Part shown: in pieces, positions 45,963 to 62,081 of the stretch
Numbering within the stretch: the first letter of the stretch is position 1
Layout of the letters: each line of letters opens with the position of its first letter
NCBI GenBank assembly: GCA_009784185.1
Contig: WRCD01000002.1
Coordinates: forward strand, 132,935 to 196,934
Length of the DNA: 64,000 nt
Direction: 5' to 3'
Source of the DNA: Bacillota bacterium
GTDB lineage: Bacteria; Bacillota; Clostridia; Christensenellales; UBA1242
Translations under genes and position numbers: made by a program
The notes under the pieces: model-generated
What the model was told of the DNA's origin: nothing
Databases searched by the model: none
Seen by the model: only the letters and a program-made list of their open reading frames with translations

Positions 45963-46718
45963 ATGAAAATAAACAATTACATAATCAACAGCCTTATAGA
46001 TTACCCGGGGCACATTGCCTGTACTGTTTTTACGGTTGGCTGCAACTTAAATTGCTGGTATTGTCATAACAAAAAACTGATTGACAGTAATTCCGAAAGT
46101 GTTGATGAGTTAGGATTGCTTGGAAAGCTAAAAGAGCGTGCCGGCTTTTTAGACGGCGTTGTTATATGCGGCGGCGAGCCTACCCTTCAGCCTGATTTGG
46201 AGGAGTTTATATTAAAAGTAAAGGCACTTGGGTTAAAGGTTAAGCTGGATACCAACGGAACGAATCCCGAAGTTGTGTCAAGGCTGCTTAGTAAAAATTT
46301 GCTGGACTATATAGCAATGGATGTTAAAGCCCCAATTAGTGCAGGTGAGGAGACTGTCATTGCGAGCCTGTCCTGCGGAGCCGGCAAACGAAGCAATCCC
46401 ATAGGTAGAAGAGAGGTGGCTCGGTATTCACAAATAGTTGGTGTTGATTGTAATATTACGGACATTAAATCCAGCATAGAGATTATAAAGGCTAGCGCCA
46501 TAGACTACGAATTTAGAACCACATTTTTGCCCGATTTAACAGTTCGGGACATTGAAAACATTGCCAAAATGATTGCAGGAGCAAAACGGTATTATATCCA
46601 AAAGTATGTTACGCCCGCGCATTTGCTTAACCGAAACATTACGCCGCATACGGCTGCCGAATTGGATTTGGCTCTGCAACTGGCAAGTAAGCATATAAAA
46701 ACCGCTTTAAGGGGTTAA
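45963..46718 (+). CDS. nrdG: Anaerobic ribonucleotide reductase activating protein (radical SAM)
   Basis: CNLNCWYCHN radical-SAM cluster motif, GGEPTLQPDL and DYEFRTTF. 251 aa, including a repeat-derived insert. Confidence 0.9.
   Translation: MKINNYIINSLIDYPGHIACTVFTVGCNLNCWYCHNKKLIDSNSESVDELGLLGKLKERAGFLDGVVICGGEPTLQPDLEEFILKVKALGLKVKLDTNGTNPEVVSRLLSKNLLDYIAMDVKAPISAGEETVIASLSCGAGKRSNPIGRREVARYSQIVGVDCNITDIKSSIEIIKASAIDYEFRTTFLPDLTVRDIENIAKMIAGAKRYYIQKYVTPAHLLNRNITPHTAAELDLALQLASKHIKTALRG
46356..46410 (+). repeat. Family-2 element, half copy, in frame inside nrdG
   Basis: GTCATTGCGAG-18nt-CAAACGAAGCAATCCC-ATA-GGTAGAA here, versus GTCATTGCGAG-19nt-CAAACGAAGCAATCCC-CTG-GGTAGAA at 45825. Translated as VIASLSCGAGKRSNPIGRR. 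Confidence 0.85.
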
Positions 46719-47345: not shown

Positions 47346-47373
47346 TTCCCCTCTAACTTAGAGGGGAATTTTG
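47346..47373 (+). terminator. Hairpin (family-1 hairpin-1-only copy, reverse orientation) plus T run
   Basis: TTCCCCTCT-AACT-TAGAGGGGAATTTT directly after the stop. Only about 25 nt before the tkt TTG start, so probably leaky. Confidence 0.5.
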
Positions 47374-51639: not shown

Positions 51640-51766
51640 AATTCTCCTTTAAGATAAAGGAGTACCCCGAAGGGGGGAGGTATGTGAAATAGATGGAAAA
51701 GCAATAAGACTGGCTTTATCACATACCCCGCTGCTCCGCAGCACCCCTTTATCTTAAAGGGGAATT
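51640..51766. repeat. Family-1 two-hairpin element, inverted dimer (MITE-like, 127 bp)
   Basis: Left unit 51640-51687 and right unit 51719-51766 (reverse complement) flank a 31-nt centre. GGTATGTGA / TCACATACC also pair. Confidence 0.85.
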
Positions 51767-55361: not shown

Positions 55362-55410
55362 AATTCCCCTTTATGAAGGGGTGGATGCGCCAAAGGCGCA
55401 GACGGGGTAG
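55362..55410 (+). repeat. Family-1 two-hairpin element (copy D) in the nifJ/truA divergent region
   Basis: AATTCCCCTT-TATG-AAGGGGTGGA-TGCGCC-AAA-GGCGCA-GACGGGGTAG. Further hairpins at 55345-55359 and 55411-55429. Confidence 0.8.
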
Positions 55411-55446
55411 CCGACGCCATAGGCGGCGTAAAGATTTTATAAAACA

Positions 55447-55491: not shown

Positions 55492-55500
55492 TGTTATAAT
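55492..55500 (+). promoter_or_regulatory. Extended -10 promoter element of truA (leaderless geometry)
   Basis: TGTTATAAT (TGn + TATAAT) at 55492-55500, then 6 nt (AAAGCC) to ATG 55507. No SD and no good -35. Confidence 0.5.
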
Positions 55501-55506
55501 AAAGCC

Positions 55507-56280
55507 ATGAGAATTAAACTTATAATTCAATATCTCGGCACCAACTATAGCGGCTGGCAAACTCAAGCCGGGCAGGACTCGGTGCAGGCTCAGCTTGAGC
55601 GGGCTGTTTTGGCTGTTACCGGCAAGCACAGCTGCGTTGAAGGCAGCGGGCGCACAGACGCAGGAGTTCACGCAGCGGCGCTAGCGGCGCATTTTGATGC
55701 CGACAGCCGGATTCCGCCCGAAAACTTTTGTCTTGCATTAAACGCCCATTTGCCGTCTGATATCCGGGTTTTAGACAGTTGCCAAGTTGACGAGAATTTT
55801 CACGCCAGATTTAGCGCAAAACGCAAAACCTATATATACAATTTTTACGTATCGCAAATCTCGCTTCCGTTGCTTAGCAGCACATATGCACACATTAAGC
55901 CGCCGTTTGATTTTACGCTTGCTCAGCAAGCCTGTAAGGCTTTTGTTGGTACGCATGATTTTAAGGCATTTATGAGCACCGGAAGCAACAAAAAAGACAC
56001 GGTAAGAACAATCTTCGATTGTTCATTAAACAAAAATTCCCCTCCTTGGAGGGGTGGCACGGAGTGCCGGGGTGGTTTAAATGGCGTTTACACGCTGCGC
56101 ATTACCGGCAACGGGTTTTTATACAACATGGTTCGCATAATTGCGGGTACTGTGTTTGAGGTGGGTGCCGGCAAAATTCCGCCGGAAAAGGTTGCAGATA
56201 TAATTGCCGCAGGCAATCGGAAACAAGCCGGCCAAACCGCCCCCGCCTGCGGGCTTACGCTGGAAAGTGTGGAGTATTAA
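55507..56280 (+). CDS. truA: tRNA pseudouridine(38-40) synthase TruA
   Basis: MRIKLIIQYLGTNYSGWQ.Q, GSGRTDAGVHA (catalytic Asp) and GNGFLYNMVRIIAG. Start moved from GTG 55486 to ATG 55507 to match typical TruA N-termini. Confidence 0.9.
   Translation: MRIKLIIQYLGTNYSGWQTQAGQDSVQAQLERAVLAVTGKHSCVEGSGRTDAGVHAAALAAHFDADSRIPPENFCLALNAHLPSDIRVLDSCQVDENFHARFSAKRKTYIYNFYVSQISLPLLSSTYAHIKPPFDFTLAQQACKAFVGTHDFKAFMSTGSNKKDTVRTIFDCSLNKNSPPWRGGTECRGGLNGVYTLRITGNGFLYNMVRIIAGTVFEVGAGKIPPEKVADIIAAGNRKQAGQTAPACGLTLESVEY
56035..56075 (+). repeat. Family-1 two-hairpin element (copy T), in frame inside truA
   Basis: AATTCCCCTCC-TT-GGAGGGGT-GGCAC-GGA-GTGCC-GGGGTGG, translated as NSPPWRGGTECRGG. Confidence 0.8.
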
Positions 56281-56388: not shown

Positions 56389-56413
56389 CACCCCTTTATC
56401 TTAAAGGGGAATT
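56389..56413 (-). repeat. Family-1 hairpin-1-only copy in the rplM leader
   Basis: CACCCCTTT-ATCTT-AAAGGGGAATT is the same 25-mer as 51742-51766 apart from the first base. Confidence 0.8.
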
Positions 56414-62022: not shown

Positions 62023-62077
62023 AATTCCCCTTTAAGATAAAGGGGTGGCAAACACGAAGTGTTTGACGGGGTATATG
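62023..62077 (+). repeat. Family-1 two-hairpin element (copy C)
   Basis: AATTCCCCTTT-AAGAT-AAAGGGGTGG-CAAACAC-GAA-GTGTTTG-ACGGGGTATATGA. Confidence 0.85.
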
Positions 62078-62081
62078 AAAA

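Follow-up and report, generated by a model that had tools for sequence, protein, structure and literature searches.

A solo repeat unit in the truA reading frame of a reduced clostridial genome, probably an inserted end of a selfish DNA element that is tolerated as a protein loop

We analysed a 64,000-nucleotide (nt) stretch of DNA, referred to below as the window, in which truA, the gene for tRNA pseudouridine(38-40) synthase (positions 55507-56280, forward strand), carries in its reading frame one unit of a highly repeated sequence, the family-1 repeat. The window covers C2:132935-196934 in an assembly (label G000; 1.16 Mb, 19 contigs, 44% G+C) from an uncultured gut member of the class Clostridia, a Firmicute with a reduced genome. 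Starting from the ATG at 55507, truA encodes 257 amino acids (aa) plus a stop, and it is the sole full-length copy found in a search of the genome contigs. Its first residues, MRIKL, agree with the starts of its orthologues. The product matches the Pfam family PF01416 with 148 bits against a cut-off of 23.3, fits the family profile over both protein halves, and matches the E. coli and Thermus TruA structures in the PDB (E about 1e-35; 2e-35 for PDB TruA entries). In an alignment of 94 TruA sequences all 30 invariant columns are retained, including the catalytic Asp51 of GRTDAGVH; R49, T50, D51, G53 and V54, belonging to the motif GRTD.GVH, are among these columns. The gene itself is retained in 30 of the 31 genomes of the order that were searched. 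Upstream of the coding region, a TATAAT hexamer ends 7 nt 5' of the ATG (window 55494-55509) and a Shine-Dalgarno sequence is absent, so the truA mRNA may be leaderless.

The repeat in truA is a solo unit of 47 nt at positions 56035-56081 on the forward strand. Its first part, AATTCCCCTCCTTGGAGGGGTGGCACGGAGTGCCGGGGTGG, spans 56035-56075, and the unit continues with TTTAAA to 56081. The start of the unit coincides with codon 177, and the unit is translated in frame as NSPPWRGGTECRGGLN, residues N177-N192; the position, letters and in-frame reading given in an initial annotation of this DNA are borne out by the sequence and the coordinates of the open reading frame (ORF). Hairpin 1 (56039-56054, forward strand), CCCCTCC-TT-GGAGGGG, joins a pyrimidine box to the first purine box; it is invariant in the subfamily alignment and paired in the covariance-model alignment. 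Hairpin 2 (56056-56068, forward strand), GGCAC-GGA-GTGCC, is the hypervariable middle module of the repeat and is perfectly paired in the same covariance-model alignment. The third box, GGGGTGG (56069-56075, forward strand), is the mirror of GGAGGGG under the rule G to G, A to T, and might supply the third strand if a purine-motif triplex forms.

A covariance model, R1, was built on an alignment of 27 other copies of the subfamily to which the truA copy belongs (the C subfamily), with the truA copy left out. On the truA copy R1 gave 74.3 bits (E value 5.7e-21) with 47 of 47 positions aligned, the top score in the window and in the whole genome, and the proposed similarity to the repeat family persists under this kind of score. 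The copy is a perfect consensus of the C subfamily (hairpin 1 inner part TCCTTGGA, tail GGTTTAAA), with both stems intact, and a strict pattern finds 28 copies of the subfamily, nearly identical to one another, in the genome. The initial annotation had treated it as a canonical AAGATAA unit made stop-free by the loss of its AAGATAA loop. This was wrong, as the copy fits the conserved positions of a separate subfamily, that of the 28 copies. Right, on the other hand, was its claim that, of the three forward frames, two contain stops in the canonical AAGATAA copies: among 42 copies of that subfamily, frame 1 is open in 5, frame 2 in 0 and frame 3 in 24. Of 32 C-subfamily copies, 25 are open in the frame used in truA, here called the NSP frame. 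The predicted RNA fold of the truA repeat region has an energy of -21.6 kcal/mol, with z = -0.86 relative to shuffled sequences, a comparison that is uninformative for a GC-rich 47-mer. At the level of sequence, the evidence for the structure of the unit is the covariation among copies rather than folding energy. We also considered that the repeat was born from a truA loop, and this was ruled out: the copy equals the consensus of a subfamily dispersed in about 30 copies, and the orthologues all lack it.

Comparison with homologues shows that the segment is an addition to truA. Related genomes of this family and order yielded 19 TruA orthologues, every one of which has 11-14 residues fewer exactly at the repeat segment, and none of the 15 closest aligned database homologues (65-49% identity over the alignment) contains it. 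Orthologues without the repeat therefore have a shorter segment and not one of equal length. In a search of 5.8 billion proteins TruA was a singleton, its nearest relatives being 59-62% identical and 245-246 aa long. Across the 94-sequence alignment, the segment at positions 171-198 has 28 residues in the present protein and 14-16 in 86 of the 94 sequences. The net excess of TruA at the site is 12-14 residues (12 codons relative to the three closest relatives); the initial annotation had put the excess at about 15 residues, and the extra segment stands, with its size corrected to the smaller figure. The homologue P0004, which is 59% identical to TruA (BLASTP), lacks the segment and is encoded on a syntenic contig, L021, from the nearest relative with a long contig. 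The gene order on L021 matches that of the window, nrdD-nrdG..tkt..ASCH-PFOR-truA-rplM-rpsI, and L021 contains a single family-1-like unit in 20 kb.

To view the segment in its protein context, an AlphaFold2 model of TruA was built from the 94-sequence alignment. It has a mean predicted local distance difference test (pLDDT) score of 94 and a predicted template modelling (TM) score of 0.90. The only low-confidence stretch is the block 181-190, with a pLDDT of 58; the rest lies above 89. Residues 178-190 are coil and connect strands 166-177 and 191-202, that is, they form the tip of a long beta hairpin. Compared by Foldseek with E. coli TruA (1dj0_A), the model gave a TM score of 0.91 and a root-mean-square deviation of 1.5 A, as expected of the TruA fold. 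Between the two placements that the initial annotation had raised, surface loop or core, the model favours the loop, since the extra residues fall in coil at the hairpin tip. The prediction is that the insert occupies a surface-type loop and leaves the fold intact, a trait also of insertions of the Rickettsia palindromic element (RPE). Presumably translation of the insert adds about 13 residues, rich in Gly and Pro, as a disordered loop, and we infer that TruA stays active and that the insertion is neutral.

Other TruA lineages vary in length at the same place. In the 94-sequence alignment the same segment has 23, 28, 35 and 78 residues in other lineages. The homologues P0008, P0057/P0059, P0062/P0070/P0072 and P0081, from other lineages of Clostridia, carry from 7 to about 62 extra residues at the same hairpin tip, and these insertions are independent. 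Because other lineages carry independent inserts there, the tip accepts extra length.

The truA copy is one of a large set. The 8-mer AATTCCCC occurs 406 times in the 1.16-Mb genome, where about 35 occurrences are expected, and a regular expression that requires hairpin 1, hairpin 2 and GGGGT finds 296 full two-hairpin units, 45-70 nt long (15-25 aa). Subfamilies were set by the inner part of hairpin 1 together with the tail after the last GGGG. Forty-six units combine the inner part TCTATAAGA with the tail GTGG, 35 combine TTTAAGATAAA with ATGTGA, and 21 combine TCCTTGGA with GGTTTA; a further group of longer units with a third hairpin has the tail GGGGTAGCC (85 units with this tail), and smaller subfamily groups are also present. 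Convergent (inverted) dimers, 58 in number and with a median length of 126 bp, account for 116 of the 296 units, and the other 180 are solo. The sole signal in the flanks is an A-rich dinucleotide 5' of the units (77% A at -2 and 67% A at -1). In units of the D subfamily, GTAG is followed by a GC-rich palindrome.

Across the whole set the boxes follow what we call the three-box rule, by which the 3' arm of hairpin 1 is mirrored in the box after hairpin 2, G answering to G, and A to either T or A. The rule holds in 821 of the 888 triplets in the 296 units, compared with 568 +/- 13 when the boxes are shuffled. Under it four subfamilies co-vary (AGA/TGT, GAA/TAG, AAA/TAT and GGA/TGG), and the rule is supported by only four or five independent subfamilies. 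Hairpin 2, for its part, is hypervariable: the 296 units have 183 distinct middle segments in which pairing is retained. Identical hairpin-2 variants are common to six subfamily classes, an example being TGCCCGAAGGGC with 18 copies, which suggests modular exchange of hairpin 2 between subfamilies.

Insertion into a reading frame is not peculiar to truA. We screened for units in frames that contain no stop and stay open for long distances on both sides, searched 30 such ORFs against Pfam, and counted a unit as lying in a gene when a recognisable Pfam domain was found upstream of the unit or spanning it. A unit was left out if it lay less than about 40 codons from the farthest upstream start that its ORF allows, as the true start may be downstream. 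By this measure at least 30 units are in frame in 24 Pfam-recognisable genes. MnmE, DnaX, HolB and Alr contain two units each, and UvrC contains an inverted dimer inside its RNase H-like domain. Among the synthetases and peptidases are ArgS, LeuRS, ValRS, an M14 peptidase and a U32 peptidase, and among the RNA and DNA enzymes TruA, TrmK, RsmE, a SpoU-type methylase and OGG. The others are a nucleotidyl transferase, a P-type ATPase, an SPFH protein, a DUF378 protein, a PadR-like protein, a YtxC-like protein, a DUF4097 protein, a GTPase and a DAO-Rieske protein. A 475-aa ORF at C6:22333-23757, with six units and no Pfam match, was left out of the count as probably a false ORF through a repeat cluster.

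For three of these proteins relatives without the insert are available. Compared with nine orthologues, Alr (alanine racemase) has two extra stretches that are missing in the relatives: NSPPWRGGAERRGG, from a C-subfamily unit whose reading frame is that used in TruA, and a further insert of about 24 aa. The peptide NSPPWRGG.E.RGG is common to TruA and Alr, and the NSP frame is the commonest among same-strand in-gene units. In UvrC and MnmE, otherwise contiguous matches in relatives skip about 50 and about 45 residues, respectively. The view put forward in the initial annotation, that the truA insertion is an RPE-like phenomenon, is thereby supported genome-wide, both by the number of units in frame and by the recurrence of the peptide in Alr. 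A greedy ORF map of the 296 units placed 159 between genes, 55 across gene edges and 82 inside ORFs; many of these 82 are near the most upstream start and may not be translated. Elsewhere in the window, nrdG (45963-46718) encodes 251 aa, compared with 224 aa in the syntenic relative L021, a length consistent with an in-frame repeat of a second family, family 2.

The units are tied to a gene of their own. The genome contains six intact genes and one fragment for proteins of the family DUF559 (PF04480; Vsr-like nucleases of the PD-(D/E)XK type), and units adjoin every one of them. Four of the intact genes are clear of contig ends, and each of these has a unit on either side, the two being inverted and from one and the same subfamily. 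These cassettes are two of A type (C3:52888-53391, and C2:66883-67352, which lies outside the window), one of D type (C4:108206-108763) and one of C type (C16:6902-7361). The last belongs to the subfamily of the truA copy, and the GGTTTAAA tail of a unit there abuts the start codon of the nuclease gene, which lies at C16:6969-7277. The cassettes are about 460-560 bp long and have one DUF559 gene each, for a protein of about 105-125 aa. Of the two intact genes at contig ends, each has a B-type unit on the remaining side; the fragment, too, has units on both sides, but these belong to different subfamilies. The cassettes look like candidate autonomous forms of the repeat, each subfamily being the terminal repeat of its own cassette, and we infer that the DUF559 nuclease mobilises the units. 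Since units stand beside every DUF559 gene and four of these genes are bracketed by inverted pairs, the truA insert is most likely a solo C-type end of a DUF559 mini-element.

The C-type unit has a scattered distribution outside this genome. A search of 40 related genomes with the C-type model gave at least 147 matches in the present genome, and a single bin, incomplete and from another family, had 8, with zero matches in 24 other genera of the family. The exact C-type pattern was found in 78 stretches of species-representative genomes, mostly metagenome-assembled genomes (MAGs) with names suggesting termite guts. The hosts at these loci (L182-L259) include Oscillospiraceae, Chitinispirillales, Tannerella and Xenobia. 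In two of the loci, from an Oscillospiraceae MAG and a Chitinispirillales MAG, a C-type unit abuts a DUF559 gene. In these assemblies of other organisms, too, copies lie in frame, both inside a Pyr_redox_2 domain and following either DnaX domain III or a ClpP domain. The presence of identical C-type units across phyla may reflect horizontal transfer or binning errors.

Taken as a whole, the evidence makes it quite probable that truA acquired, in this lineage, one solo unit, 47 nt long, of a selfish DNA element present in many copies, and that the unit is tolerated there as a loop. In the mechanism that we propose, the complete element would be an inverted pair of units around a small DUF559 nuclease gene. 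A solo C-type end of it would have entered truA with the frame kept and no stop in the frame used, and its landing site would have been the tip of the long beta hairpin where TruA tolerates length. The insertion would have survived because of these three circumstances together, the preserved frame, the absence of a stop in it and the permissive tip, and the loop would neither help nor seriously harm the enzyme. A broader proposal, to which we give slightly less than an even chance, is that family-1 units are the ends of an undescribed mobile element with a DUF559/Vsr-like nuclease as its only gene and with hairpin ends that possibly form triplexes, that this element spread between phyla in termite guts, and that essential proteins regularly gain new surface loops from its solo ends.

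Several points weigh against this account. The truA copy is solo and not part of an inverted pair, and to our knowledge DUF559 nucleases are not known as transposases. The net gain at the site, 36-42 nt, is smaller than the 47-nt unit, so that the loop must have been shorter in the ancestor unless insertion removed or replaced a few bases. No target-site duplication was recognised at truA in the DNA alignment, where the closest orthologues are only about 60% identical and the boundary is not decisive. Finally, loops atop the core mediate dimerisation of bacterial TruA (review PMC12710931), which is why the position of the insert relative to the dimer interface and the tRNA matters.

A different mobilising enzyme has to be weighed. 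The units could be sequences of the repetitive extragenic palindromic (REP) type, or of the REP doublets forming hairpins known as REPINs, spread not by the DUF559 nuclease but by a REP-associated tyrosine transposase (RAYT). The genome does contain one Y1 HUH transposase gene, at C2:101413-102183 and hence outside the window, for a protein of 257 aa with a C-terminal helix-turn-helix-like tail. It matches the Pfam family Y1_Tnp, and its best NCBIfam match is REP_Tyr_transpos with 79.3 bits, a score that lies just below the curated cut-off of 80 bits. Among the 25 genera of the family a strong RAYT match occurs only in this genome, which is also the sole one with an expansion of the units; a RAYT-like gene is absent in 23 of the 24 other genera searched, and the remaining one gave a weak match. 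This co-occurrence, however, amounts to a single genome. The GTAG and GC-rich palindrome of the D-subfamily units also speak for this alternative, as do the 58 inverted dimers, which resemble REPINs. There are, however, no units within 5 kb on either side of the RAYT-like gene, only an isolated 8-mer AATTCCCC, and the DUF559 genes, by contrast, all have adjoining units. Because the RAYT-like gene is not flanked by units and every DUF559 gene adjoins them, we rank RAYT below DUF559 and regard this alternative as unlikely.

It is more improbable that the insert was kept because it is functional, whether by hairpins in mRNA or DNA that regulate truA or by a loop that gives TruA a new interaction. 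The perfect consensus with both stems intact, the predicted RNA fold and the recurrence of the NSP-frame peptide in Alr, in the frame most common among same-strand in-gene units, would all suit such a role. But the folding energy is ordinary next to that of shuffled sequences, and a perfect consensus is equally expected of a recent insertion. The same units are found in unrelated proteins and in unrelated places, the loop is predicted to be disordered, and the insert is not conserved, being absent in all orthologues.

We think it very improbable that truA is becoming a pseudogene whose product the insertion has already inactivated. In favour of this reading, the present genome is small and full of selfish repeats, and E. 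coli can do without truA. Nevertheless, the truA frame is open over its full length with the invariant residues all kept, the model is confident outside the loop, longer inserts are found at the same TruA site in other lineages, and the gene is retained in all but one of the 31 genomes searched in the order. As for an assembly artefact, in which a metagenome assembler spliced a repeat copy into truA, a 19-contig assembly of metagenome type with hundreds of near-identical 47-nt repeats invites the suspicion, but the chance is negligible: typical reads and k-mers are longer than the unit, unique truA sequence lies on both sides of it on a 199-kb contig, the frame is kept exactly, the same accident would be needed for more than 30 other in-frame cases, and independent assemblies of other organisms also show in-frame copies.

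Insertion of a selfish unit that is tolerated as a loop, the explanation we prefer, can be compared with known systems, and first with the RPEs. R. conorii has 44 RPE insertions, nearly half of them in ORFs, a frequency described as an "unusually high level" (review PMC10969869). According to prediction, proteins can keep their conformation and function with these insertions (Ogata et al. 2000, via review PMC10969869). The present repeats resemble RPEs in that they are abundant, small and palindromic, belong to a reduced genome of ~1.2 Mb, lie in frame in unrelated housekeeping genes and add a conserved peptide. They differ in size, RPEs being about 100-150 bp and the units here 45-70 nt, and in their two-hairpin, three-box build. 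The RPE host is an alpha-proteobacterial intracellular parasite, whereas the host here is a gut bacterium of the class Clostridia. Here a DUF559 nuclease gene is tied to the units, whereas the review (PMC10969869) mentions no autonomous RPE partner, and identical units occur here in several phyla. The repeat is by this analogy an RPE analogue and not a member of the RPE family, from which it is set apart by size, build, host and partner gene rather than by a sequence comparison, a relationship in sequence not being expected.

The build of the unit recalls the BoxC, PIT and TM_ECO elements known from E. coli and further bacteria (Holder et al. 2015, PMC4666352). Like the present units these have a C-rich box and two G-rich boxes, with a possible purine-motif intrastrand triplex, and the three blocks here obey their purine-motif triplet rule, as a rule of sequence only. 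They too occur as single copies or as inverted pairs of two types, with a copy number that varies strongly among close relatives. The TM_ECO consensus is CCCTCNCCC-N3-6-GGGNGAGGG-N3-GGGNGAGGG, with 9-nt blocks and a 3-nt second loop, and TM_ECO is reported to be always intergenic, with no mobility genes nearby (PMC4666352). The units here, in contrast, have 7-nt boxes and, in place of the second loop, a variable hairpin of 12-25 nt; many of them lie in ORFs, and they bracket a nuclease gene.

Two further groups share some of these properties. REPs, bacterial interspersed mosaic elements (BIMEs) and REPINs with RAYT (PMC3116915) are likewise short GC-rich palindromes, single or in inverted dimers and of mosaic types, and a RAYT-like gene is present here; but REPs are extragenic, and here the RAYT-like gene is unflanked and the units flank DUF559 genes. 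[quoted passage not shown] Here too a related candidate autonomous element shares the ends, namely the DUF559 cassettes, that of the C subfamily at C16:6902-7361 included. Unlike a MITE, the truA copy is a single end without a pair of terminal inverted repeats, and the partner is a PD-(D/E)XK nuclease and not a recognised transposase; a target-site duplication was not recognised. In the literature that we searched, a limited collection, we found no description of repeats that bracket DUF559 genes or of the in-frame inserts of this genome.

The density of in-frame units, at least 30 in 24 genes of a 1.16-Mb genome, is comparable to that in Rickettsia, and it occurs in an unrelated gut Firmicute. 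If the broader proposal is true, protein-coding palindromes would be a general phenomenon and not a peculiarity of Rickettsia. With DUF559 as a candidate mobilising gene, the movement of the element and its tolerance by proteins become testable questions. The inserts also amount to natural loop-insertion experiments in well-studied enzymes, among them TruA, Alr, UvrC and three aminoacyl-tRNA synthetases. They present a hazard for annotation as well, since they inflate protein lengths, and stop-poor repeats yield spurious ORFs.

Three other family-1 units of the window, all scored with R1, are intergenic. One, of the D subfamily with the GGGGTAGCC tail, lies between nifJ and truA (55362-55416, forward strand, 23.6 bits); a B-subfamily (AAGATAA/ATGTGA) unit lies at 51718-51766 on the reverse strand (28.9 bits), and a further family-1 unit at 62023-62080 on the forward strand (22.9 bits). 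Downstream of truA, in the rplM leader, a copy that consists of hairpin 1 only was recognised by reading the sequence (AATTCCCCTTTAAGATAAAGGGGTG, 56389-56413, minus strand). Palindromes of this kind, of the form AAAATTCCCC..GGGGAATTTTT with runs of A and T at the sides, are found at 56389-56413 and 47346-47370 in the window and at C1:270845, C10:5540, C11:7324 and other sites; about nine perfect ones were found in the genome. To judge from their form, these hairpin-1-only palindromes look like bidirectional intrinsic terminators.

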